From positions 37,447 through 61,446 of the forward strand of contig JBOGSA010000002.1 of assembly GCA_050749785.1 (NCBI GenBank): a stretch of 24,000 nt of DNA, written 5' to 3'. Origin of the DNA: Candidatus Micrarchaeales archaeon (GTDB taxonomy: Archaea; Micrarchaeota; Micrarchaeia; Micrarchaeales; CABMGC01). Positions 5,719-17,836 of the stretch are shown in pieces; the first letter of the stretch is position 1; each line of letters begins with the position of its first letter. Under the pieces are notes generated by a model. It searched no databases. It worked only from the letters and a program-made list of their open reading frames with translations, and was not told the origin of the DNA. Position numbers and translations under genes: made by a program.

Positions 5719-5874
5719 GTGTTTCAGACTTGATCTTACTCATCACACACCTATTCTGGTAGAGAGCTAATTTATAACCTTCCTCTTGCTTCCGCTATTC
5801 TCCTTGAAAACGTAAAAAACAAAGTTGTAGATTTGATTTATAAAGTCCGAAAAGAAGAATATTAGTGTGAAACG

Positions 5875-7997: not shown

Positions 7998-8492
7998 ATG
8001 GCAAAGGATGAAGTAAGCAAGGTAACGCACGACGCGCTCCAAGAAGGCGGAGTTCTAGCCAAGCTTTATTTTGACATGCACAGCGAGAAAGAGGAGGATC
8101 TGCAGCCGCTGATGACAGATCTGATAAGCAATAGGCTGCTCAAGACGCCGGGCGTAATATACTGCGTGGGTGAGATTGCCGAGCCAATAAAAATAGAGGA
8201 GATTTATTCCACCAACGCCGTGGCAACAATACTCTTCAAGGACATCGGTGCTCTGATAAACGTCACATTCAACTACGCACCAGCCGGCATCGAGATAATA
8301 AAACCAGAAAAGGAGGTTGCGATAAAGGTTAGCGAGCTCCAATCCATACTTCTCGACCTATCGAAAGTTGCGATGGAGTATTCACAGTTCATACTCAGCC
8401 GGGTCCTTTCAAAGGAGGACTACGAAAAAGTGCAGGGCGACCTCAAGAACAGGGAACTCGTGGGAAAGAGGCTGCTCGAGAAGAAGGAGTAG
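7998..8492 (+). CDS. Hypothetical 164-aa protein (gene X; left flank of the cassette array)
   Basis: ATG at 7998, 4 nt after the hisS stop. Its last 86 codons are duplicated at 11067-11327 with a purifying-selection pattern, which argues for a real, conserved gene. Family not recognised. Confidence 0.7.
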   Translation: MAKDEVSKVTHDALQEGGVLAKLYFDMHSEKEEDLQPLMTDLISNRLLKTPGVIYCVGEIAEPIKIEEIYSTNAVATILFKDIGALINVTFNYAPAGIEIIKPEKEVAIKVSELQSILLDLSKVAMEYSQFILSRVLSKEDYEKVQGDLKNRELVGKRLLEKKE

Positions 8493-8524
8493 TAGTTTGG
8501 TTATAAACGAATCTTGTAATCAGC

Positions 8525-8532
8525 TTTATAAA
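8525..8532 (+). promoter_or_regulatory. TATA-like box (TTTATAAA) inside a 36-nt block conserved at the left edge of both cassettes
   Basis: Block 8497-8532 aligns with 11419-11454 at about 27/36 identity and ends in an identical TTTATAAA. It lies upstream of small gene E in both copies. Confidence 0.5.
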
Positions 8533-8588
8533 TAAGGGCAAACAACATTAACTTGAAGCAAGAACCATATTTGCAACTGCGTGAAAAA

Positions 8589-8774
8589 ATGGGCGGAACA
8601 ATAAATAAGAACGGCAAACTGTATAAAACAGAAAGAAGGATAACCTTCGTTATGTCACCTAAGAATGGTTGCCCACGTTTCAGCATAACGGGAAACGTAA
8701 CAAAATTCAGAGACGACTTTGGCGGCAGAGTTAAATCAAAAGGAAAGCTTATAAGACACTTTACCTCTGTTTAA
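8589..8774 (+). CDS. Cassette 1 small protein E1 (61 aa), function unknown
   Basis: ATG 8589 within track ORF 8553-8774. An ungapped alignment with hand-translated E2 shares CPR..(I/V).G..(V)KF.DD(F/Y). Position and the 3-prime/3-prime overlap with R are conserved in both cassettes. Confidence 0.45.
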   Translation: MGGTINKNGKLYKTERRITFVMSPKNGCPRFSITGNVTKFRDDFGGRVKSKGKLIRHFTSV

Positions 8775-9789
8775 CTACTGATTTAATAAATTCCCTTTGT
8801 TTCTCATACTCCTCCAAATGAGAAGGCCACTTGCCAACTATAATATCGGTAAGTATTGCCCTATCTATTTTTGGCTTTTCTGTTTTCCACATAGTTTGTA
8901 CTAGTTCGGCGCCTCTTTTTGACATCTCCTCCCCATTCTTGAAAGTGCACATAGAAAACACATCATAAGTGCCATTAATGTTAACATCGAGCACATAGTC
9001 ACTTGTTGCCCCATTAAAACTTTCTGTAGTAAATTCTTTTGCCAAATTAAGGGCCAGTTCTTGGTGGTTTTTTACAGGTGTTAATGTTGCCCCATATGCC
9101 AAAATAATCTTCTTATCTGTCTCTTGAGTTAGGGCAGCAAATTTCCTAATAATTTTCTTTTGTTCAAGTTTTTCAAGTATGTAAATGGCCCTCATCTGCG
9201 TTGTCTTCGCCTTATTCACCAGCTCCTTTAACTTTATTCTTGAGTTTTCATTTACCGCTTTTAGCACCGCTTTTTCAGTTTTGTTGAGTATTGGACTTAG
9301 TTCAATCAGCTCATTTTTCAACGGTAAAAACCCAACAATGTATTCATTGATCGTAGAAGTCTTGAAGATCGGCACATAATCGCTCAAATCCATCCTGAGC
9401 TTAAACTGCCATGTTTGGAAGTCTTTTGAGGTTAAACCTACCACATAAAGAAGAAGGTCAAAGTCTCCCGTTCCCAAATAAGCGTCCTGTACGAAGACAT
9501 CCCTCCTGAATTTATTGTATAGAAATTCTCTCGTAGGCGTATTCTCAAATTTTACCGTTATGAGTCTGCCCTCAGAAAAACCTAAGGCAACCTCGTCAAG
9601 TTCAACTGTATAATATATATGGTATCGTGCCTCCAGTTCCTTTAAAACTTTGGAGATAGTAAAATGGGAAACCCCTATTTCACGAGATAATTCCCTAATA
9701 GTAATTCGGGAATTTTTGGCTATTCTAACTAAAATCTGATAAGGCACTTCTTCCCGTATGAATTTCATAGCTTTTCGCGTGTGCACCAT
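8761..9789 (-). CDS. Cassette 1 regulator R1: two tandem wHTH + RAM-like modules (Lrp/AsnC-like)
   Basis: HTH-like segments: ILVRIAKNSRITIRELSREIGVSHFTISKVLKELE and VLKAVNENSRIKLKELVNKAKTTQMRAIYILEKLEQKKIIRKF. Each is followed by a RAM-like segment, e.g. LITVKFEN...VQDAYLGTGDFDLLLYVVGLTSKDF. ATG at 9789; TTG alternative at 9801. Confidence 0.7.
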   Translation of the reverse strand: MVHTRKAMKFIREEVPYQILVRIAKNSRITIRELSREIGVSHFTISKVLKELEARYHIYYTVELDEVALGFSEGRLITVKFENTPTREFLYNKFRRDVFVQDAYLGTGDFDLLLYVVGLTSKDFQTWQFKLRMDLSDYVPIFKTSTINEYIVGFLPLKNELIELSPILNKTEKAVLKAVNENSRIKLKELVNKAKTTQMRAIYILEKLEQKKIIRKFAALTQETDKKIILAYGATLTPVKNHQELALNLAKEFTTESFNGATSDYVLDVNINGTYDVFSMCTFKNGEEMSKRGAELVQTMWKTEKPKIDRAILTDIIVGKWPSHLEEYEKQREFIKSVVKQR

Positions 9790-9912
9790 TTTATCTTCCA
9801 AAATAATTATTTATTTATTATATTAATGATAAATACTATAATTTATTTGATTTATTTGCCAATAAATATATATACCCAAAACTTCATAATTATTTCCAGA
9901 GGGAATTGGATT
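9790..9912. promoter_or_regulatory. AT-rich divergent control region of cassette 1 (between R1 and the A1-D1 operon)
   Basis: About 85% A+T by eye, with multiple TATA-like boxes on both strands. Contains the tandem direct repeat ATTTATTTG x2 at 9841-9858. Confidence 0.55.
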
Positions 9913-10182
9913 ATGGGGATATACACTGCCAATGCTTTCCCAAAGTTTGGCAAGACTGATTTTCTTCACTCCCTAAAGAATACCCATCCCAAGGTAAGTT
10001 CCCATATCCTTCCCTCCATCTACAACTCCTTCATCAAAAGATTCGTAAGACCGAAATTTGTCAGAAAATCGTACCTATGTTGGCAGTGTGAGGAGAAATA
10101 CTCCGATCCCCTGAAATATACCATGCATATGCGGGACTGCTGTTGCATAAAGCAATGTGCCACTATAGAGGTAATTAAATGA
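9913..10182 (+). CDS. Cassette 1 protein A1: small classical (beta-beta-alpha type) C2HC zinc-finger protein
   Basis: The segment YLCWQCEEKYSDPLKYTMHMRDC fits Y-x-C-x2-C-x3-Y-x5-Y-x2-H-x3-C. About 65% aa identity to A2. ATG at 9913 within track ORF 9781-10182. Confidence 0.8.
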   Translation: MGIYTANAFPKFGKTDFLHSLKNTHPKVSSHILPSIYNSFIKRFVRPKFVRKSYLCWQCEEKYSDPLKYTMHMRDCCCIKQCATIEVIK

Positions 10183-10346
10183 AGCCGCATGAACGTGCCA
10201 TGGAGATGCTCTTGCAAATAAGCGAGATGAACCTCATGCTGCCTGAGCTCTATAGCCACCTTCCAAGGAACGACTGGATAAGGATTAAGCAGCTTCTCGA
10301 GGAGACACAGCAGATACTCGAAAAGCATAGGAGGGTGCCGATATGA
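10179..10346 (+). CDS. Cassette 1 protein B1: 55-aa helical protein
   Basis: Hand-translated: MKPHERAMEMLLQISEMNLMLPELYSHLPRNDWIRIKQLLEETQQILEKHRRVPI. ATGA overlap with the A1 stop. 44/55 identical to B2. Below the track cutoff. Confidence 0.75.
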   Translation: MKPHERAMEMLLQISEMNLMLPELYSHLPRNDWIRIKQLLEETQQILEKHRRVPI

Positions 10347-10504
10347 ACTACTACGCCTACATCAGGAGAAGGTGCGCAGACCTTATCAGCCTGAGGTTCA
10401 AGTTGCACAAGCTATTCAATTTCCTGCATGGCCCGGATTTTGAAAGGCTGCAGGAATTGCTTGATGAAGCAGAACAGATACTTAAGAAATACGAGAATAT
10501 GTGA
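10343..10504 (+). CDS. Cassette 1 protein C1: 53-aa helical protein, paralogous to B
   Basis: Hand-translated: MNYYAYIRRRCADLISLRFKLHKLFNFLHGPDFERLQELLDEAEQILKKYENM. ATGA overlap with the B1 stop. The first 51 aa are identical to C2 despite about 13 synonymous nucleotide differences. Confidence 0.85.
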   Translation: MNYYAYIRRRCADLISLRFKLHKLFNFLHGPDFERLQELLDEAEQILKKYENM

Positions 10505-10517
10505 ATTGTGTGTTTTC

Positions 10518-10802
10518 ATGTCTTCAAAAAGGAAGTGTAGGATAGCATGCGAAAGCCAAAAGCTGCGCAGTTTCATAATGCTAAAGCCCTCACTGCCTGC
10601 CAACTCGCACGCAGTAGCAAAGGAGATCGCGATGTGCAGGGGCGTGAGGGAGGTGGCACTTACGACAGGCGAATTTGGATTTATTGTAGGAGTAGAGTCA
10701 GAGCCATTGGTTGAAGAGATCAAAAGGAAGATTCACACAATTGCACATTCCAAAAAGATGAGTGTGCTTGTCAAGCATTTTTCGTACAAAAATACACTAT
10801 AA
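10518..10802 (+). CDS. Cassette 1 protein D1: stand-alone RAM (Lrp/AsnC ligand-binding-like) domain protein
   Basis: FIMLKPSLPANSHAVAKEIAMCRGVREVALTTGEFGFIVGVES resembles the RAM beta-alpha-beta-beta core (V.EV..VTGEYDLIV.VE). About 65-70% identical to D2. ATG 10518; TTG 10506 is possible. Confidence 0.75.
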   Translation: MSSKRKCRIACESQKLRSFIMLKPSLPANSHAVAKEIAMCRGVREVALTTGEFGFIVGVESEPLVEEIKRKIHTIAHSKKMSVLVKHFSYKNTL

Positions 10803-10804
10803 AG

Positions 10805-11062
10805 TCATTTCGCCAGCCCGCGCAGGAAAAACCTCTTTATCACGACGCTCGGCCTGTCCATGTCGCCGTATTTTCCAAGGAACGATTCGAGGCCCATCAG
10901 TTTTATCACCCTGGCAATCCTCTCAAGGCTCTTTTTGCTCTGCGTTGCGTAAAGGTTGTAGAAGAAAGAATGCAGCCTGACTTCTTTCTCAAACTCCTTC
11001 CTCCATTTGCGCTCATATGTGCTGAGCTGCGTTCCTTTGTTTATGTGGCTTGCGATTGCATC
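10805..11062 (-). pseudogene. 3-prime fragment (last 85 codons + stop) of a GGR-family gene
   Basis: Encodes DAIASHINKG...FFLRGLAK, 85/85 aa identical to the end of 13807-14913, with about 9 nucleotide differences that are all synonymous. It lacks the remaining ~283 codons. The upstream extension of track ORF 10805-11107 is antisense of the X fragment. Confidence 0.88.
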
Positions 11063-11066
11063 AGTG

Positions 11067-11327
11067 CTCTTCAAGGACATCGGCGCGCTGATAAACGTGG
11101 CGTTCAACTACGCCCCGGCGGGAATCGAGATAATGAAGCCGGACAAGGAAGTGTCGATAAAGACGAGCGAGCTCCAGTCCATAATACTCGACCTATCGAA
11201 AGTTGCGATGGAGTATTCACAGTTCATACTCAGCAGAGTGCTATCCAAGGAGGATTTCGAAAAGGCCAAGACCGACCTGCAAAACAGAGAGATGATAGGC
11301 AAGAAGCTCCTTGAAAAGAAGGACTAA
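11067..11327 (+). pseudogene. 3-prime fragment (last 86 codons + stop) of a gene-X homologue
   Basis: LFKDIGALINVAF...LLEKKD is 71/86 identical to the X C-terminus, and the replacements are mostly conservative. It lacks the first 78 codons. The upstream part of track ORF 11007-11327 is antisense of the GGR fragment. Confidence 0.88.
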
Positions 11328-11446
11328 AAAATCAATAATCGCATTTTATTCTCCACCCATCTGGAATATCTATTTTTATTTCCATTTTCCTCCATTTTTA
11401 GACCCCTTGAAATATCAATTGATAATAAACGAAGTTACATATCAGA

Positions 11447-11454
11447 TTTATAAA
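11447..11454 (+). promoter_or_regulatory. TATA-like box (TTTATAAA) of the conserved left-edge block, cassette 2
   Basis: Counterpart of 8525-8532. Lies about 36 nt upstream of the E2 ATG. Confidence 0.5.
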
Positions 11455-11489
11455 GGGGGATTGCAATGATTATTTGTATAGTGAGTTAA

Positions 11490-11660
11490 ATGAGAATTAT
11501 AAAGAGCAACAATAAGACAGTAATAGTAGCATCGGGGGGGGACAATGGCTCACAGTGCCCACGAGGAATCGTATCTGGCAGTCATGTTAAGTTTGCTGAT
11601 GATTACCACAATAAACTTATAGCTAAGAAATCTCTCGTCTTTAAGCTATTTCTTGTATGA
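11490..11660 (+). CDS. Cassette 2 small protein E2 (56 aa), function unknown
   Basis: Hand-translated: MRIIKSNNKTVIVASGGDNGSQCPRGIVSGSHVKFADDYHNKLIAKKSLVFKLFLV. Weak but positional homology to E1. Overlaps the R2 3-prime end by 15 nt. Contains a G8 run. Confidence 0.4.
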   Translation: MRIIKSNNKTVIVASGGDNGSQCPRGIVSGSHVKFADDYHNKLIAKKSLVFKLFLV

Positions 11661-12767
11661 TTTTGGTATTAATTTTGCCGATTCTAGGAATTTATATTGT
11701 CTAGAGTATACGGCATCAAAATCTCTGACACCTGTATTACCAAGCAATATCTGTGTCATGAAGAAGGGTTTTATTGATGATCCATGTAACTCTGTCCTTA
11801 ATTTATTAAGGAACTTTTCAGCAGAATTACCATCAACAAAATTCATAAAAATTATTATGCCTTGTGGGGTAGAAATATCGCACATGAAAGTATACTCTAT
11901 GTGTTTATCATAATCCCTAACCATATCTAGCCACCAGACTGATCTGCTATTTAGAAATTGTTTGTCGTTAAGTATCGTGACTTGGACTATGAGCGTAACA
12001 ACATTGTTTGGCTTATTTTCATAGTAAGTAATTCTGCGAAGCATTCCTGTATCTATCAACCTTTCATACGCATAGATAATATGCGGTAATCCATGTTTTG
12101 ATTCTTTTGCAATGGCACTAAACTCCTTTCTCCCATCTTCATTCAATGCTAGCAGAATGTGTTTATACGTATCTAGTATTTGGAATTTCTCTACGAGATT
12201 ATTTTGCATAGGGAAGAAACCGAAGGTCGTGCGTATGTTCAATAGCTCAGAACGTATTTCATAATGTTTATCAAGGCTGCTGATGTCCTCTCTAAAAGTA
12301 TTTAAAAATCTGTTTATCTCGTCGTAGCTTCTTGCAATTCCATATATAACTACATCATATTCGCCATGCAATCTTGCTGCAAATTGCGGTATATAATGTT
12401 TTTCAAGAGCTTTTGAGAACTCAATGTCTGTAGGGATACCATCTATGAATTTGATGAATATTAGGTACTCTTCGAAGCCTAACTCCGGCAACTTTTCAAT
12501 AACGTTTTCTAAGATTCCCTTCTTATTGTAGGTTCTCGCATATTTTACAAATTCCCATCGCCACAATTCCTCTATCCCTATTTCGGGAGTAAAACGTATG
12601 TCCTGTTCCTTTACCGTCTCTCTAAATAATCTATTCAAGGTGGTTTGGGGGACATTAAGTTTTGAAGCAAGATCCCTTATACTTCTTCTTCCATCAACAC
12701 TCAAAAGTTTCAGCATCCTTCTCTTAATTGCTGCCTTTTCCTCATCACTAAATATTCTGTCAGGCAT
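11646..12767 (-). CDS. Cassette 2 regulator R2: two tandem wHTH + RAM-like modules (Lrp/AsnC-like)
   Basis: HTH-like segments: LKLLSVDGRRSIRDLASKLNVPQTTLNRLFRE and ILLALNEDGRKEFSAIAKESKHGLPHIIYAYERLIDTGMLRRI. RAM-like segment: LIFIKFIDG...AARLHGEYDVVIYGIARSYDEINRF. Same architecture as R1 but only about 20% identity by eye. ATG at 12767; TTG alternative at 12785. Confidence 0.7.
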   Translation of the reverse strand: MPDRIFSDEEKAAIKRRMLKLLSVDGRRSIRDLASKLNVPQTTLNRLFRETVKEQDIRFTPEIGIEELWRWEFVKYARTYNKKGILENVIEKLPELGFEEYLIFIKFIDGIPTDIEFSKALEKHYIPQFAARLHGEYDVVIYGIARSYDEINRFLNTFREDISSLDKHYEIRSELLNIRTTFGFFPMQNNLVEKFQILDTYKHILLALNEDGRKEFSAIAKESKHGLPHIIYAYERLIDTGMLRRITYYENKPNNVVTLIVQVTILNDKQFLNSRSVWWLDMVRDYDKHIEYTFMCDISTPQGIIIFMNFVDGNSAEKFLNKLRTELHGSSIKPFFMTQILLGNTGVRDFDAVYSRQYKFLESAKLIPKSYKK

Positions 12768-12915
12768 ATTTCTCTTTTGAATCAAACATTTTTAAGTCTT
12801 TGGTTTATATTAAGAATTATTTACCAATTTATTCAATATTTAGCCTATTAATAGCACATATTATTCTAACTACTTATAAAAGTATCTAACTGCATATTAT
12901 ATTTGGGATTTGGGA
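12768..12915. promoter_or_regulatory. AT-rich divergent control region of cassette 2
   Basis: AT-rich with TATA-like boxes, e.g. CTTATAAAAG about 38 nt upstream of the A2 ATG. Contains the tandem repeat ATTTGGG x2 at 12901-12914. The sequence is not alignable with the cassette 1 control region. Confidence 0.55.
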
Positions 12916-13179
12916 ATGGGAACTTACATCGTCGAAACTTACAAGTTAGGCACTACTGATTTTCTTCACTCCCTGAAGAACAACCCCCAGAAGGTAAGTT
13001 CCCAAACCTCTCCCTCATTCTATAAGTCCTTTATCAAAAGATTCGCAAGAACAAAAGTCATAAAGAAAGCCTACTTGTGCTGGGAATGCGAGGCGAAGTA
13101 TTCTGATCCTTTGAAATATGCTATACACTTGGAAGACTGCTGCACTAAACAGTGTGCCACAATCGAGGTAATTAAATGA
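12916..13179 (+). CDS. Cassette 2 protein A2: classical C2HC zinc-finger protein
   Basis: YLCWECEAKYSDPLKYAIHLEDC has the same spacing as A1. ATG 12916; the track start at 12910 is TTG. Confidence 0.8.
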   Translation: MGTYIVETYKLGTTDFLHSLKNNPQKVSSQTSPSFYKSFIKRFARTKVIKKAYLCWECEAKYSDPLKYAIHLEDCCTKQCATIEVIK

Positions 13180-13343
13180 AGCCGCATGAACGTGCCATGG
13201 AGATGCTCTTGCAAATAAGCGAGATGAACCTCATGCTGCCTGAAATATACAATCACCTTACCATGAATGATTGGTACAGACTAAAGCAGCTCCTCGAGGA
13301 GGCAGAACAGATACTGGAAAAACACAAGAAGGTCTCGATATGA
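13176..13343 (+). CDS. Cassette 2 protein B2: 55-aa helical protein
   Basis: Hand-translated: MKPHERAMEMLLQISEMNLMLPEIYNHLTMNDWYRLKQLLEEAEQILEKHKKVSI. ATGA overlaps at both ends, as in cassette 1. Confidence 0.75.
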   Translation: MKPHERAMEMLLQISEMNLMLPEIYNHLTMNDWYRLKQLLEEAEQILEKHKKVSI

Positions 13344-13504
13344 ACTATTATGCCTACATAAGGAGAAGGTGTGCAGATCTAATCAGCCTAAGGTTTAAGT
13401 TGCACAAGTTGTTTAACTTCCTGCATGGCCCGGATTTTGAAAGGTTGCAGGAATTGCTTGATGAAGCAGAACAGATACTTAAGAAATACGAGAGAAGCAT
13501 GTAA
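13340..13504 (+). CDS. Cassette 2 protein C2: 54-aa helical protein
   Basis: MNYYAYIRRRCADLISLRFKLHKLFNFLHGPDFERLQELLDEAEQILKKYERSM, the C-terminal part of track ORF 13271-13504. Confidence 0.85.
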   Translation: MNYYAYIRRRCADLISLRFKLHKLFNFLHGPDFERLQELLDEAEQILKKYERSM

Positions 13505-13515
13505 TGGTGTGTTTC

Positions 13516-13818
13516 ATGTCTTTGAAGAACAAGTGTAAGATAGCGTGCGAAAACCTGCGAAGTCAGCATGGCTTCATAATTCTGAAGCCCTCTTCGTCTA
13601 TTAATTCACACATTGTTGCAAAGGAGATCGCGATGTGCGAGGGTGTAAAGGAAGTGGCGTTGACAACTGGCGAATTTGGATTTGTAGTGAGGGTGGAGTC
13701 AAGAATAGGGATTGAAGGCATCAAAAGGAAAATTTCTGCAATTACTCATTCTAAAAAGGCAAGTATCCTCGTAAAGCATTTTTCATACCGAAATACCATC
13801 CATAATTCATTTAGCTAA
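13516..13818 (+). CDS. Cassette 2 protein D2: stand-alone RAM-domain protein
   Basis: FIILKPSSSINSHIVAKEIAMCEGVKEVALTTGEFGFVVRVES. ATG at 13516 is homologous to the D1 start; an upstream ATG at 13504 is possible. The 3-prime end overlaps the GGR stop region by 12 nt. Confidence 0.75.
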   Translation: MSLKNKCKIACENLRSQHGFIILKPSSSINSHIVAKEIAMCEGVKEVALTTGEFGFVVRVESRIGIEGIKRKISAITHSKKASILVKHFSYRNTIHNSFS

Positions 13819-14913
13819 GCCGCGCAGGAAAAACCTCTTTATCACGACGCTCGGCCTGTCCATGTCGCCGTATTTTCCAAGGAATGATTCGAGGCCCATC
13901 AGTTTTATCACCCTGGCAATCCTCTCAAGGCTCTTTTTGCTCTGCGTTGCGTAAAGGTTGTAGAAGAAAGAATGCAGCCTGACCTCCTTTTCAAATTCCT
14001 TCCTCCATTTGCGCTCATATGTGCTGAGCTGCGTTCCTTTGTTTATGTGGCTTGCGATTGCATCTGCGGCATATCGAGCTCCGTTTCCGCCGAATATTAT
14101 TCCGCCTCCGGTGGTTGGCTTCACCTGACCTGCAGCATCGCCGACAAGAAGCACCTCTTCTTTGTCCTTCACGAAATGTTCGCGCATCCCAACCGGAATG
14201 AAACTTGCGCCTTCTGTTATGAATTTTCCGCTCTTTACTACCTCTGCAATCGCAGGGATTTTCTTGAATTTCTCAAATGATGACTTGCTGTTGCCAAACT
14301 TCGAGTCAATCCCTATTCCTATTTCCGCGATATCTTTTGAGTTTGGGCAGATCCATCCGAAGAATCCAGGGGTGAGGTCGTTGTCGAAAAATAGCTCCAC
14401 CATGCTGTTCTCCTCTAACTTATAATCATATTCCGCCCTGAAAGTGAGAATCTGCCTTTGTATTGCAGGAAACTTGAAATGCCTTGCCACAGACGACACA
14501 GCTCCATCGGCGCCTACCACTATCTTCTCCTGCGACAACTTATCGAATAGGGTAGCATCAACCTTTGTACCAATATGCATCTTCACTCCCTTCTTCTCGC
14601 TCTCTTCTAAAAGCAGCTTGTTGAGTTCAAATCGCTCAAGTACATAGGCCACAGCCTTCTGTGATTTTATCTCTAGTATCTCCTTGCCTATGTGTAATTT
14701 TGCTCCGTGTAAGGTGTTGGTCATCACCTTCCTGTAATCTATGCCCAAGGTTTCAAGTCCGCTGATCGAAAGGATTCCGGATGCTCGCACAGGAAATCCA
14801 GGCGTCTTGTTCTGGTCGTACACATCAGTTTCTATTCCAAAATCACGCAGCCTGTTTGCAGCAATTAACCCTGCAGTTCCTGCCCCAATAATCGCAACAC
14901 TATTCTTCATCAA
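13807..14913 (-). CDS. Geranylgeranyl reductase-family FAD-dependent oxidoreductase (right flank of the cassette array)
   Basis: N-terminal dinucleotide fold VAIIGAGTAGLIAANRL...DVYDQ, followed by LLVGDAAGQVKPTTGGGI. Length and motif order are typical of archaeal GGR-family proteins. Confidence 0.85.
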   Translation of the reverse strand: MMKNSVAIIGAGTAGLIAANRLRDFGIETDVYDQNKTPGFPVRASGILSISGLETLGIDYRKVMTNTLHGAKLHIGKEILEIKSQKAVAYVLERFELNKLLLEESEKKGVKMHIGTKVDATLFDKLSQEKIVVGADGAVSSVARHFKFPAIQRQILTFRAEYDYKLEENSMVELFFDNDLTPGFFGWICPNSKDIAEIGIGIDSKFGNSKSSFEKFKKIPAIAEVVKSGKFITEGASFIPVGMREHFVKDKEEVLLVGDAAGQVKPTTGGGIIFGGNGARYAADAIASHINKGTQLSTYERKWRKEFEKEVRLHSFFYNLYATQSKKSLERIARVIKLMGLESFLGKYGDMDRPSVVIKRFFLRGLAK

Positions 14914-14971
14914 AAGCCCAAGTTGGTGTTTAAATAAGTTATCGTTCTTAAGTTATAAAATACGTGTCTTG

Positions 14972-17836
14972 ATGACCTTCTTAGTTCCGGCATTTATATC
15001 ATTACTATCTATAATAGTCCCTGGATTTTTCCTGGCACTAGCCCTGCTCAAAAAAACAAAGCTCAACATGTTTGAGATTGGTGCGATTGGATTCATATTC
15101 GGACTGATTTTCCCGCCAACAATGATCTGGCTCGAAGCCTACCTCATACCAATTTCACATGCATTCGCATTTTCCACAAACCTCTACAACATAAACGTTG
15201 TGCTTCTCACGATAATCGGCATAGTCCTCTGCTTCATGCAAGGAATTTTCTCCACCGACCACATAAAGCCATTCATCGGCATGGCAAAGTCTGCAAAGAG
15301 CCAGGCGACGGCAGAGAGTGTTGTTCTTAGCCCCAGCAAGAAGGGACACTCTTACATCTGGTACATATTGATGGGGCTTATGCTTGTCACATTCGCATCA
15401 AGGCTGCTAAGCCTTGGGATTGCACCAAATTTCTTCGAGTTCGACCCATATTTCGACATGCTCAGCACCCAATCCATACTCGTTCACGGCTATCAGGTTC
15501 TTTACGACCATTCTGCTTGGCCTACGCTAACCGCAGGCAGCCCGCACAGAATAGAACCAATAGTTCCTTATCTTGAGGCTTACTGGTACACAATCACAAA
15601 CCAGCTCCAGACGCACTACACGGCATTTAGCACCTCGCTCATGAGCGATGTTAGCAGCTTCTATCCACCAATAGTTGCTGCGCTGCTCGTCTTTGTCGTT
15701 TTCATGTTCCTATATCATGAGTATGGCGAGTTCCCGGCGATAATCGGCGGCACGCTTGCGACCGCAATGCCGGCACTCATCACAACATTCATCGCAGGAG
15801 AACAGCTCGTCGAACCATGGGGAATCTTCACGCTTTTCTTCTTCTATGCGGCGTATCTGCTCGCGGTCAACAACTTACATGAAAAGAAGTTCGCAATACT
15901 CGCAGGCATCGCCTTCGTATCCACCTTCCTAGGCGCTCACTACTACACGGTGGACGCGGGAGTTCTTGCGATATACATACTGCTGCAAGGAATAGTATTT
16001 GTCCTAAAGAAAGAGCACACAAAGGATTTCTACATCCTCAATATAATCGTAATCGCGATAATCGCAGTCTTCTACGTGCTCTTCGCGCCATATGGAAGCG
16101 TTCTTTCCAACAAGATACCGGCGTTGCTTGGCGTACCGATTATAATCGGCTTCCCGCTCTTTGCCATGATATTCGTCCTGATATTCGAATACATTCCAAA
16201 GCTGCTTGCACAGAAAAAGATACTCTTCAAGCAACTAAACTTCCTAGAATACGCAGGCTTTTTGCTGCTCCTTGCAATCGTTGCGATAGTGCTGATAATG
16301 TTCACATCGCTTGGCGAACCGGTGCAGAAATATATAACACTTAGCACCCACTTCACAACTCCCTCAATACCGTTGTTTGCAACAGTCCAGGAGTATTCGC
16401 CGACAGGATTTAACTTCAACTTCGGGTCTGCAGGCTTTGGAATAATTGGCGCAACCATTTTGGGAGTCAACTTGATAGTATGGCTAGTGCTGATTTTGTT
16501 CACAGCTCTTATGCTGCTTGCAATCTACCACAGGAATTCTAAGTTCAGCATCCTCTCTCTTGCCGCTGTATGGCCGCTTGCGATTGCAGGAATGGTAGAG
16601 GTGAAATATCTGCCGCACTTCGGAGTTGGTTACATACTTGCAATTGGCGCAATAATCGGGGAACTTTTGATACTGGCAAACAACAACTTCAAATTCAAGG
16701 ACATGGCAAATGTGATACCAACACTCAACCTCAAGCTCAGATCGGTGCAAGCGATAGCCGTTATCGCCATAATCGTTGTCATACTCGAATCTGGAGTGTT
16801 CCTAAACATTATAAGCGCTGTGGCTAATCCAAGCTGTGCCTCCCTTTCTAGTTCCAACAATCAGATAGGCTACACTCTTTATTGTGAGGTCGTATCGCAG
16901 CAGTGGCTGAGCGCACTCTCATGGATGAAGGCAAATGTAGGGCCGTACGCCCCAAGGGTGCTTGCATGGTGGGACTATGGAGACTGGATAAACTGGTTTG
17001 GCAACAGCAATGCGGTGCTCAGAGGAGACAACGCTGTAGCAACTTCAGACTACGCCACCGCAGCGCAGTATGTGCTAGTGAATTCTGACGGCGTTAATTC
17101 CTCGACCCTTTCATCTTACATGAACTCAATACAGGCAAAGTATGTGCTCTTTGATGATCAGCTGATGCAGAAGTGGGGCGCGCTGGACTATCTTGCATGT
17201 GTAAATGCAGGACAAACGAGCCTAGCATACGCAGTACAGCAGGGGCAGGCTAACGGCCAGCCCTACCAACTCGGCACATCTCAGTGTGAACTAGCCCACG
17301 ATCCTGTGTATGCGCTCGTTCCTGCAACGACCAACAACATAAACAATTACTGCCAGTTCAGCAATTCATCTGTCCAGGCGCTCAAGGTGATAATGCTAGC
17401 TGGCAACAACTTCCTCAATGTGACATACTGCGTTCCTGCAAGCCTATACAACAGCGTCAGCCCAGTGCATCTCTACACCACCAACGGAACGATGACGAAC
17501 GCAATGATCATACCTTCGCAGACATTCTTCTATGGCACAATTCCACTAAGCGGCCAGACATTTGCGGACTTCCTTGTTGTGTACCTGCCTAACGGGCCTA
17601 ACGACACGATAACAGATGCGCCTACGCAGTTCTACAATTCGAGCTACTACAAAGGATTCTTCTTTGGCAAGGTGAAGGGATTCAGTCTTGTCTACCCAGA
17701 GAACTTCACAGGAGTGAACTACATCAACAGTACGAACACTGTAATGATACTGCAAGTCGACAACTACACCGGCGGCATACCAACGGCGACTCCAAAGGCG
17801 AGCTACGTTACAAACAACTACACAATGCCTGGTTGA
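14972..17836 (+). CDS. aglB: Archaeal oligosaccharyltransferase AglB (STT3 family), 954 aa
   Basis: A multi-TM N-terminal half followed by the WWDYGDWINW (WWDYG) catalytic motif at 16967-16981. ATG 14972 was chosen because the track ORF start at 14741 runs antisense through the GGR gene. A TTTAAATA box lies about 40 nt upstream. Confidence 0.9.
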   Translation: MTFLVPAFISLLSIIVPGFFLALALLKKTKLNMFEIGAIGFIFGLIFPPTMIWLEAYLIPISHAFAFSTNLYNINVVLLTIIGIVLCFMQGIFSTDHIKPFIGMAKSAKSQATAESVVLSPSKKGHSYIWYILMGLMLVTFASRLLSLGIAPNFFEFDPYFDMLSTQSILVHGYQVLYDHSAWPTLTAGSPHRIEPIVPYLEAYWYTITNQLQTHYTAFSTSLMSDVSSFYPPIVAALLVFVVFMFLYHEYGEFPAIIGGTLATAMPALITTFIAGEQLVEPWGIFTLFFFYAAYLLAVNNLHEKKFAILAGIAFVSTFLGAHYYTVDAGVLAIYILLQGIVFVLKKEHTKDFYILNIIVIAIIAVFYVLFAPYGSVLSNKIPALLGVPIIIGFPLFAMIFVLIFEYIPKLLAQKKILFKQLNFLEYAGFLLLLAIVAIVLIMFTSLGEPVQKYITLSTHFTTPSIPLFATVQEYSPTGFNFNFGSAGFGIIGATILGVNLIVWLVLILFTALMLLAIYHRNSKFSILSLAAVWPLAIAGMVEVKYLPHFGVGYILAIGAIIGELLILANNNFKFKDMANVIPTLNLKLRSVQAIAVIAIIVVILESGVFLNIISAVANPSCASLSSSNNQIGYTLYCEVVSQQWLSALSWMKANVGPYAPRVLAWWDYGDWINWFGNSNAVLRGDNAVATSDYATAAQYVLVNSDGVNSSTLSSYMNSIQAKYVLFDDQLMQKWGALDYLACVNAGQTSLAYAVQQGQANGQPYQLGTSQCELAHDPVYALVPATTNNINNYCQFSNSSVQALKVIMLAGNNFLNVTYCVPASLYNSVSPVHLYTTNGTMTNAMIIPSQTFFYGTIPLSGQTFADFLVVYLPNGPNDTITDAPTQFYNSSYYKGFFFGKVKGFSLVYPENFTGVNYINSTNTVMILQVDNYTGGIPTATPKASYVTNNYTMPG

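Follow-up and report, generated by a model that had tools for sequence, protein, structure and literature searches.

A head-to-head pair of gene tails marks the joint between two diverged tandem units in a Micrarchaeales archaeon

A head-to-head pair of gene ends is present in a 24,000-nt stretch of the genome of a Candidatus Micrarchaeales archaeon (GCA_050749785.1, contig JBOGSA010000002.1); this whole stretch is called the window, and all coordinates refer to it. The feature is 523 bp long (10805-11327). Its left part, 10805-11062 on the minus strand, holds the last 85 codons and the stop of the geranylgeranyl reductase (GGR) gene, matching 13807-14064, and its right part, 11058-11327 on the plus strand, holds the last ~87 codons and the stop of a gene of the MJ0538 family, called X here (compare 8223-8492). 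The repeat search paired 10802-11062 with 13804-14064 (261 nt, 96%) and 8223-8491 with 11058-11326 (269 nt, 80%), and both matches of fragment to gene are far above chance. When the joint was aligned with both intact genes, GGR homology extended to 11062, while X homology began at 11058 and became perfect from 11067. The two overlap in the five nucleotides GCATC, which are GCATC in GGR (5/5) and GCAAC in the resident X (4/5), the short microhomology expected of an illegitimate joint.

The pair had been described in the original prediction as an isolated fusion of two gene ends. It is instead the seam of two tandem, non-identical units that lie between genes adjacent in relatives. Collinear direct repeats (D1, D2 and D4-D7) at a spacing of ~3,000 nt span 9943-11062 and 12943-14064, and repeat D3 corresponds to the X arms. 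Two direct and contiguous units of ~3 kb are present, unit 1 at 8223-11062 and unit 2 at 11058-14064, connected by one novel joint at 11058-11062, which is the arrangement of a tandem duplication. Each unit runs from the X 3' end through an open reading frame (ORF) of 56-61 aa, a minus-strand regulator of 342-379 aa and four plus-strand small ORFs to the GGR 3' end (Table 1). The 523-bp feature is the single novel joint between these two side-by-side, diverged units. Both fragments were found where the prediction had placed them, and the microhomology that it suspected at the breakpoint is real.

The divergence between the units is far from uniform. The X arms are ~80% identical at the nucleotide level, 8493-9910 and 11328-12910 are essentially unalignable, the small-ORF region is 65-90% identical and the GGR arms 96-100%; homology stops within a few nucleotides of the X stop codon and resumes at about 9910/12910. 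Simple tandem copies would be expected to diverge evenly, but here the regulators share 22% of their amino acids, X and the small ORFs have a synonymous divergence (dS) of 0.8-1.4, and GGR has a dS of 0.19. The large proteins are fused double regulators of the Lrp/AsnC type, in which helix-turn-helix (HTH) and RAM-like halves occur twice; both halves of ORF346 of unit 1 matched HTH_24/MarR/AsnC-type HTH and Lrp equivalog models. ORF346 and ORF379 of unit 2 cannot be aligned as DNA, and ORF379 shares 53-58% of its residues with homologues from other genomes and with a third module of its own genome. The two big genes are therefore different paralogues, older than the rest of the repeat, and given also the break in homology the units were never simple copies of each other. 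Between the units, the four small ORFs show a dS of 0.77-1.44 and a ratio of non-synonymous to synonymous divergence (dN/dS) of 0.01-0.19. The X arm and the small ORFs thus share one level of divergence under strong purifying selection, as orthologous alleles of one locus would in two lineages dS≈1 apart. A Monte-Carlo test on the small ORFs split the differences evenly between the branches, which makes an over-lenient null, and the argument from dS rates was preferred.

From LFKD onward, the X arms (11067-11324 and 8232-8489) differ at 50 of 258 nt and in 15 of 86 amino acids. The replacements are mostly conservative, the other differing codons are synonymous, and there are no stops, frameshifts or indels. 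By the Nei-Gojobori method (NG86), dS is 1.0-1.1, dN is 0.10 and dN/dS is 0.09-0.11. The fragment reads GCA TCA GTG ... KEVSIKTSELQSIILD ... REMIGKKLLEKKD, and its differences from X reach the joint itself (11061, 11064, 11066), which fits either the end of a foreign DNA or a replacement tract reaching beyond the boundary of the arm. Neutral drift of the fragment since dS≈1 would give ~0.5 non-synonymous divergence per site, as compared to the observed dN of 0.10. By our own arithmetic (dN ≈ f·dS/2, with the partner constrained), the fragment has been unconstrained for at most ~20%, about a fifth, of its own branch (f).

The GGR arms (10805-11062 and 13807-14064) differ at only 9 of 258 nt, all of them synonymous, and the 85 amino acids and the stop are identical (dS=0.19 and dN=0 by the same method; S=52.7 and N=202.3 sites). 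The probability that nine neutral changes would all be synonymous is ≈(52.7/255)^9≈7e-7, again by our own arithmetic, and that all nine landed on the intact copy is similarly improbable. Taken together with the limit on drift in X, this shows that the differences originated between functional genes, and a pseudogene decaying in place was rejected, as dN/dS is 0 for GGR and ~0.1 for X and stops and indels are lacking. The nine differences (10811, 10814, 10816, 10817, 10883, 10982, 10985, 10988, 10994) form two dense patches, 10811-10817 and 10982-10994, plus the lone site 10883. The patches have 4 differences in 7 nt and 4 in 13 nt, a density no lower than the 0.2 per nt of the X arm. Identical stretches of 65, 98 and 68 nt set them apart, and the clustering is significant (P≈3e-4 and <1e-4). 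Such a mosaic is as left by homologous exchange or conversion between sequences about 20% diverged, and the arm bears the signs expected of a homologous anchor. GGR seems younger than X because of this exchange or conversion. The low divergence of the arm means that most of it is identical by descent or was converted afterwards; the position of a crossover is insufficient to account for it.

These results bear out part of what had been proposed for the divergence. Nine or so silent changes in a GGR fragment with 85/85 identical residues were confirmed codon by codon, as were the ~80% identity and the 15 mostly conservative replacements of the X fragment, and the pairwise ratios asked for came out at 0 for GGR and 0.09-0.11 for X, nowhere near 1. 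They support the view that the divergence arose while both versions were intact, selected genes. The proposal of a crossover or later conversion in the GGR arm is partly upheld: the clustered mosaic (P≈3e-4) fits it, but a crossover position by itself cannot lower divergence.

Table 1. Features between and including gene X and GGR (window coordinates)
Feature	Coordinates	Strand	Basis and remarks
Intact gene X (164 aa, MJ0538 family PF27325)	7998..8492	+	Gene call, precomputed Pfam family; last 270 nt (8223-8492) are the left arm of unit 1
Unit 1 small ORF (61 aa)	8589..8774	+	Gene call; distant counterpart of the unit 2 56-aa ORF, 36% identity over 28 aa
Unit 1 fused double Lrp/AsnC-type regulator (342 aa; 346 aa from TTG at 9801, ORF346)	8761..9789	-	HTH and Lrp equivalog matches; GC 38%
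Unit 1 small-ORF operon	9913..10802	+	65-90% nt identity to 12910-13818
Unit 1 operon members	Cys-rich ORF 9913-10182; s55 10179-10346; s53 10343-10504; s94 10518-10802	+	
Orphaned GGR 3' fragment (85 codons + stop), right arm of unit 1	10805..11062	-	No gene called there in L010
Novel joint J	11058..11066		GCATC overlap 11058-11062; three-way alignment; seen in two assemblies
Orphaned X 3' fragment, left arm of unit 2	11058..11327	+	Annotated as 94 aa (from 11043) or 87 aa (GTG at 11064)
Unit 2 small ORF (56 aa)	11490..11660	+	Gene call
Unit 2 fused double Lrp/AsnC-type regulator (373 aa from ATG 12767; 379 aa from TTG, ORF379)	11646..12785	-	HTH_AsnC-type and LysM-type matches; GC 35%
Unit 2 small-ORF operon	12910..13818	+	Cys-rich ORF 12910-13179; s55 13176-13343; s54 13340-13504; s104 13504-13818
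Intact GGR (367 aa)	13807..14910	-	FAD_binding_3 and GGR_cat matches, gene call; last 258 nt (13807-14064) are the right arm of unit 2

At eight related loci from Micrarchaeota (L001, L003, L004, L005, L008, L018, L021 and L022), X and GGR are direct neighbours that converge on each other, with stops ~4-45 nt apart by our subtraction of match ends, and the 5.3 kb between them in the window is therefore a lineage-specific insertion. A scan of GTDB genomes found relatives of X solely in metagenome-assembled genomes (MAGs) of Micrarchaeota, at 50-76% amino acid identity, and X is widely conserved there, with 107 Micrarchaeota homologues in a set of 5.8 billion proteins. The module composed of a small ORF, the big regulator and divergent small ORFs recurs among other Micrarchaeota with unrelated surroundings: in L012, in L014/L015 and in L003, where it lies on the opposite side of GGR. 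Homologues of the unit 2 56-aa ORF (50-52% identity) and of the unit 1 61-aa ORF adjoin the big-ORF homologues in L012 and L014. No gene-fragment repeats flank the homologous modules of L003, L012 and L014, and module insertion therefore does not regularly produce such a joint. At least three module copies are present in this genome; the third lies at L024 1-1405 (GCA_975254265.1, contig CDHSRO010000014.1), where protein P0008 is 53% identical to ORF379. That contig ends inside a region resembling the Cys-rich ORF, 77% identical to window 9955-10083, which suggests that the repeated modules break assembly.

Some further observations were made at these loci. In L003 (11880-16295), an ORF379 homologue (37% identity) lies between GGR and an oligosaccharyltransferase gene (AglB-like, 954 aa, ORF 14741-17836), together with two large ORFs of 577 aa and 462 aa, which on their sequences may be read as ThyX-like and SHMT, respectively. 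GGR adjoins the oligosaccharyltransferase gene in L001, L005 and L008, and in view of the insertions in L003 the neighbourhood of GGR appears to be rearrangement-prone. A perfect 81-nt tandem duplication with a spacing of 87 nt lies within the small-ORF region of the L012 module (9038-9205).

Scans of the cassette with Pfam (including relaxed thresholds), NCBIfam, PHROGs and PADLOC returned only winged HTH and RAM domains. Family scans of the units found no integrase, recombinase, transposase or Rep gene, the region has no tRNA and no Rfam family, and a viral contig scan was negative. A transposon or insertion sequence was rejected, as there is no transposase and there are no terminal inverted repeats, and the duplicated flanks are ~260 nt each and diverged. 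The s94/s104 ORF is a stand-alone RAM-domain protein, with matches to RAM and to LysM C-terminal models. The Cys-rich ORF of ~89 aa (…YLCWQCEEKYSDPLKY…DCC…) is present in both units, with a dS of 1.44 and a dN/dS of 0.13 between them; it has no family match and no gene call in the annotation of GCA_975254265.1. The s55 and s53 ORFs are paralogues (40% amino acid identity) with a common motif, …LLEEAEQILEKH… (10296-10332, 10460-10496, 13293-13329 and 13457-13493), so the small-ORF operon has an internal duplication. The motif TTTATAAAG occurs at 5837-5845(+), 11447-11455(+) and 8524-8532(-), one copy being upstream of the unit 2 56-aa ORF, and it may be an archaeal TATA/BRE-like promoter element; a 33-nt repeat, D8 (5813-5845 and 11423-11455, 79%), includes it.

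The fate of the X fragment was considered with a structure model. The AlphaFold model of X (mean confidence score, pLDDT, 84.5) has a predicted βαββαβ domain (strands 19-29, 53-60, 69-80 and 97-100) followed by a long C-terminal helical hairpin. It gave weak ferredoxin-like matches, and a profile search found no sequence match of X to any solved structure. The joint falls inside predicted strand β3, and the fragment would retain one helix, one strand and the hairpin and lose three of the four strands. No TATA-like box was found upstream of the fragment; a T5 run occurs at 10932. When the 15 replacements were polarised with 17 homologues, ~8 were derived on the fragment and ~4 on intact X, with 3 ambiguous, which leans weakly and non-significantly to relaxed constraint on the fragment. 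An orphan is more likely than a live mini-gene.

The joint is also present in a second assembly, GCA_975254265.1 (contig CDHSRO010000004.1, loci L010/L011), with the same integrated phasing. The window is 99.98% identical to that contig, with 2 mismatches and one 2-nt indel over 20 kb. A further MAG, 'ACREBF', encodes proteins identical to X (ACREBF_00485), to the X fragment (ACREBF_00520, 87 aa) and to ORF379 (373 aa), and its X fragment sits seven locus tags after X. The Logan contig L009 (SRR27067714) matches 11205-12934 and breaks where the repeats begin. Over the 18.5 kb common to both assemblies, three of the four differences lie in unit 2 (12765, 12786-12787 and 14026), and they could be strain polymorphism, ongoing conversion or consensus noise. 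One of them alters the start of ORF379, which is ATG in the window, as needed for the 373-aa form encoded by the ACREBF MAG, and ATA in L010; the window is therefore probably the ACREBF assembly. At 14026, a synonymous site in the GGR of unit 2, the window agrees with the orphan fragment and L010 does not.

The explanation that we favour, with a confidence only slightly above even, is that another allelic version of the segment, diverged beforehand, was inserted next to the resident one and did not replace it, and that the fragment pair is the novel joint. The anatomy, the joint, the signature of selection, the mosaic in GGR and the lineage-specific insertion are observations, and the foreign origin, the order of events and the choice of the foreign unit are inferred. 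The feature is most likely the scar of recombination with a related lineage, which is a known kind of event and not a new kind of element. The added segment would comprise the X 3' end, an Lrp-type regulator cassette and the GGR 3' end, and two joins would have been made: a homologous exchange anchored in the 3' end of GGR, and an illegitimate join at GCATC that would fuse GGR codon -86 to X codon -88. Every scenario that takes the DNA as real requires these two, one illegitimate GCATC join and a homologous interaction in GGR. Homology-facilitated illegitimate recombination (HFIR) of a linear fragment from a related Micrarchaeota lineage is the simplest single event. The donor fragment would begin inside its own X (X') and end in its own GGR (GGR'); it would be anchored via the GGR homology, leaving patchy donor tracts behind, and its free end would join at the microhomology within the same gene, so that the resident GGR tail would be pushed aside and the foreign X tail trapped beside it. 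Alternatively, a circularised fragment may have been integrated by a single crossover of the Campbell type, or a microhomology-mediated tandem duplication may have been followed by allelic replacement of one unit (unit 1). The three routes yield the same map but differ in which unit is foreign. The displaced 3' ends of both genes would be non-functional leftovers, and they would appear selected because the differences are those between two functional alleles and not decay.

Several results weigh against such an addition from outside. Searches of the GTDB genomes with X, of metagenome contigs with the X fragment and of the set of 5.8 billion proteins with both gave no donor-like X allele and no X'-ORF379-GGR' locus; the best matches to other X proteins reach 66-79% amino acid identity over the C-terminal region. 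A neighbour-joining tree built from the C-terminal 86 aa groups the X fragment and the resident X as sisters (71% bootstrap). Neither unit bears a compositional mark of foreignness, and neither the bias between GC and AT (strong/weak) substitutions nor the GC content at third codon positions (GC3) differs significantly between the units (X arms p=0.64, small-ORF region p=0.06); an initial impression that the fragments favour codons ending in G was rejected on these grounds. Both fragments are still open reading frames with possible start codons, and the X fragment was called as a gene by both pipelines (94 aa and 87 aa). The evidence for a tandem as opposed to an episomal arrangement is at the level of assemblies, from two MAGs that are not necessarily from independent samples. 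Of the interpretation put forward in the original prediction, the origin of the differences between functional genes is supported, and no donor for the lateral import was found in any collection searched. The sister grouping of the X fragment with the resident gene is the outcome that had been named as refuting import; the nearest other sequences in the tree (P0015 and P0020), however, are only 71-79% identical, as compared to 83% between the fragment and resident X. The fragment is thus nearly as far from resident X as the next sampled lineage is, and with sampling this sparse the tree has no power to decide. Any donor would belong to a sister lineage not yet sampled.

An old in-place tandem duplication by a microhomology join would agree with the sister grouping of the X fragment and resident X. 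Selection would have kept both units, the X fragment would be a functional protein of 87-94 aa, intrachromosomal gene conversion would have kept the GGR arms alike, and the big regulator would later have been swapped in one unit. The dN/dS of ≈0.1 of the X fragment, its freedom from stops and indels and its gene calls from two pipelines agree with this, as do the clear purifying selection on the small ORFs of both units and a mosaic GGR arm that is compatible with conversion tracts. The costs are the extra events, conversion and a cassette swap between regulators of 22% identity when the relatives of ORF379 elsewhere are at 53-58%, and a foreign or selected source would still be needed for nine all-synonymous differences in GGR (≈7e-7 if neutral). 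The X fragment would also lack most of the predicted β-sheet and has no recognisable promoter box before it, and the ~8 derived amino acid changes on it against ~4 on intact X are a weak pointer to relaxed constraint. We give this history a low but appreciable probability. Much less probable is a circle of ~3 kb (X fragment, ORF379 cassette, small ORFs and GGR 3' end, closed at J) that coexisted with a single-unit chromosome, an excised or aberrantly excised episome that assemblers threaded into the chromosome through the common GGR sequence. The structure exactly matches a circle opened in the GGR arm, the arms have identical runs up to 98 nt, the ends of contig L009, at 11205 and 12934, coincide with the start of the repeats, and the module family occurs in varied neighbourhoods across genomes with at least three copies in this one. 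Metagenome assemblers commonly use k-mers longer than 98 nt and read pairs, as a matter of general practice rather than as the recorded settings of this assembly. Since the arm variants lie within ~100 nt of unique sequence, these should be resolvable by such means, and two assemblies agree on the integrated phasing; moreover, the unit has no replication, integrase or transposase gene.

An assembly or library artefact, in which the joint is a chimera of alleles of co-occurring strains and present in no cell, might be suspected of a repetitive region in a metagenome-assembled genome, where three of four inter-assembly differences over 18.5 kb fall in unit 2. A strain bubble, however, has no graph edge from GGR back to X, and the joint needs real k-mers and sits at a microhomology exactly one unit out of register. 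It is found in two assemblies that differ by single-nucleotide polymorphisms (SNPs) and is implied by the annotation of a third record set (ACREBF), and we regard an artefact as very improbable. Least credible of all is the arrival of one or two site-specific integrative elements that targeted the 3' ends of X and GGR and carried surrogate 3' ends. Such elements typically bring surrogate ends that differ by synonymous or conservative changes, and the inserted DNA is AT-rich, but they predict native ends displaced tail-to-tail (X-3' then GGR-3'), whereas the leftovers here are head-to-head; no integrase, recombinase, transposase or tRNA is present, and no identical att core is common to both arm pairs. 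Double site-specific integration into X and GGR was rejected, being contradicted by the orientation of the leftovers. A more speculative thought is that the 3-kb unit closed at J may be a small integrase-free mobile cassette of Micrarchaeota, with a circular intermediate that captured the ends of two convergent host genes. With these ends as homology arms, it would enter and leave the X/GGR site by host recombination and spread alternative Lrp-type cassettes between lineages, a role that we think quite doubtful.

Campbell-type integration of circular DNA gives a topology identical to that seen here, that is, a resident unit, a joint, an incoming unit and duplicated homology arms. No vector or replicon functions are present here, formation of the circle would itself need an illegitimate join, and the near-identity of the GGR arms would require later gene conversion. 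Integrase-mediated islands with a surrogate 3' end likewise have a duplicated 3' end with silent or conservative differences beside AT-rich inserted DNA, but the present locus has no integrase and no att core, and the leftover is in the wrong orientation. Classical tandem duplications begin as identical copies, usually between pre-existing repeats. Merodiploids of this kind, including tandem duplications triggered by transformation (PMC3784515), resemble the locus in the direct repeat, the single novel joint and partial genes that there are redundant copies; they differ from it in that here the joint has a 5-nt microhomology, the units stand at dS≈1 and the regulators are different paralogues. 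HFIR and a 'displacement' or orphan-array model have been described for T6SS (type VI secretion system) and Rhs loci (PMC5361080). In these arrays of orphan immunity genes or C-terminal ends, of T6SS, Rhs and contact-dependent inhibition (CDI) systems, one homologous anchor and one microhomology join also act together, the new allele comes in alongside the old 3' part, which is displaced and left as an orphan, and the differences between orphan and active copy are allelic and not decay (PMC5361080). Unlike them, the present case concerns a DPANN archaeon and a regulator cassette between two housekeeping genes as cargo, and orphans of two convergent genes arose at once, head-to-head. On the recipient side, the illegitimate join falls within the anchor gene itself, which gives duplication rather than deletion, and no donor was found in the collections searched.

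The locus is a recombination scar of an ordinary kind that happens to lie in an unusual host and to keep a well preserved record of its formation, and it reveals no new mechanism. For annotation, it is a warning that the 'hypothetical protein' of 87-94 aa is most likely an orphaned gene tail and that a conserved Cys-rich ORF nearby was missed. DPANN archaea are uncultured and genetically intractable. If the favoured explanation is true, the joint would illustrate cleanly, and in nature, one homologous and one illegitimate join in such an archaeon. It would mean that the chromosome can gain DNA from a lineage at about 20% divergence, that the ends of housekeeping genes serve as recombination anchors, and that alleles of a variable regulator cassette are swapped at one fixed location.

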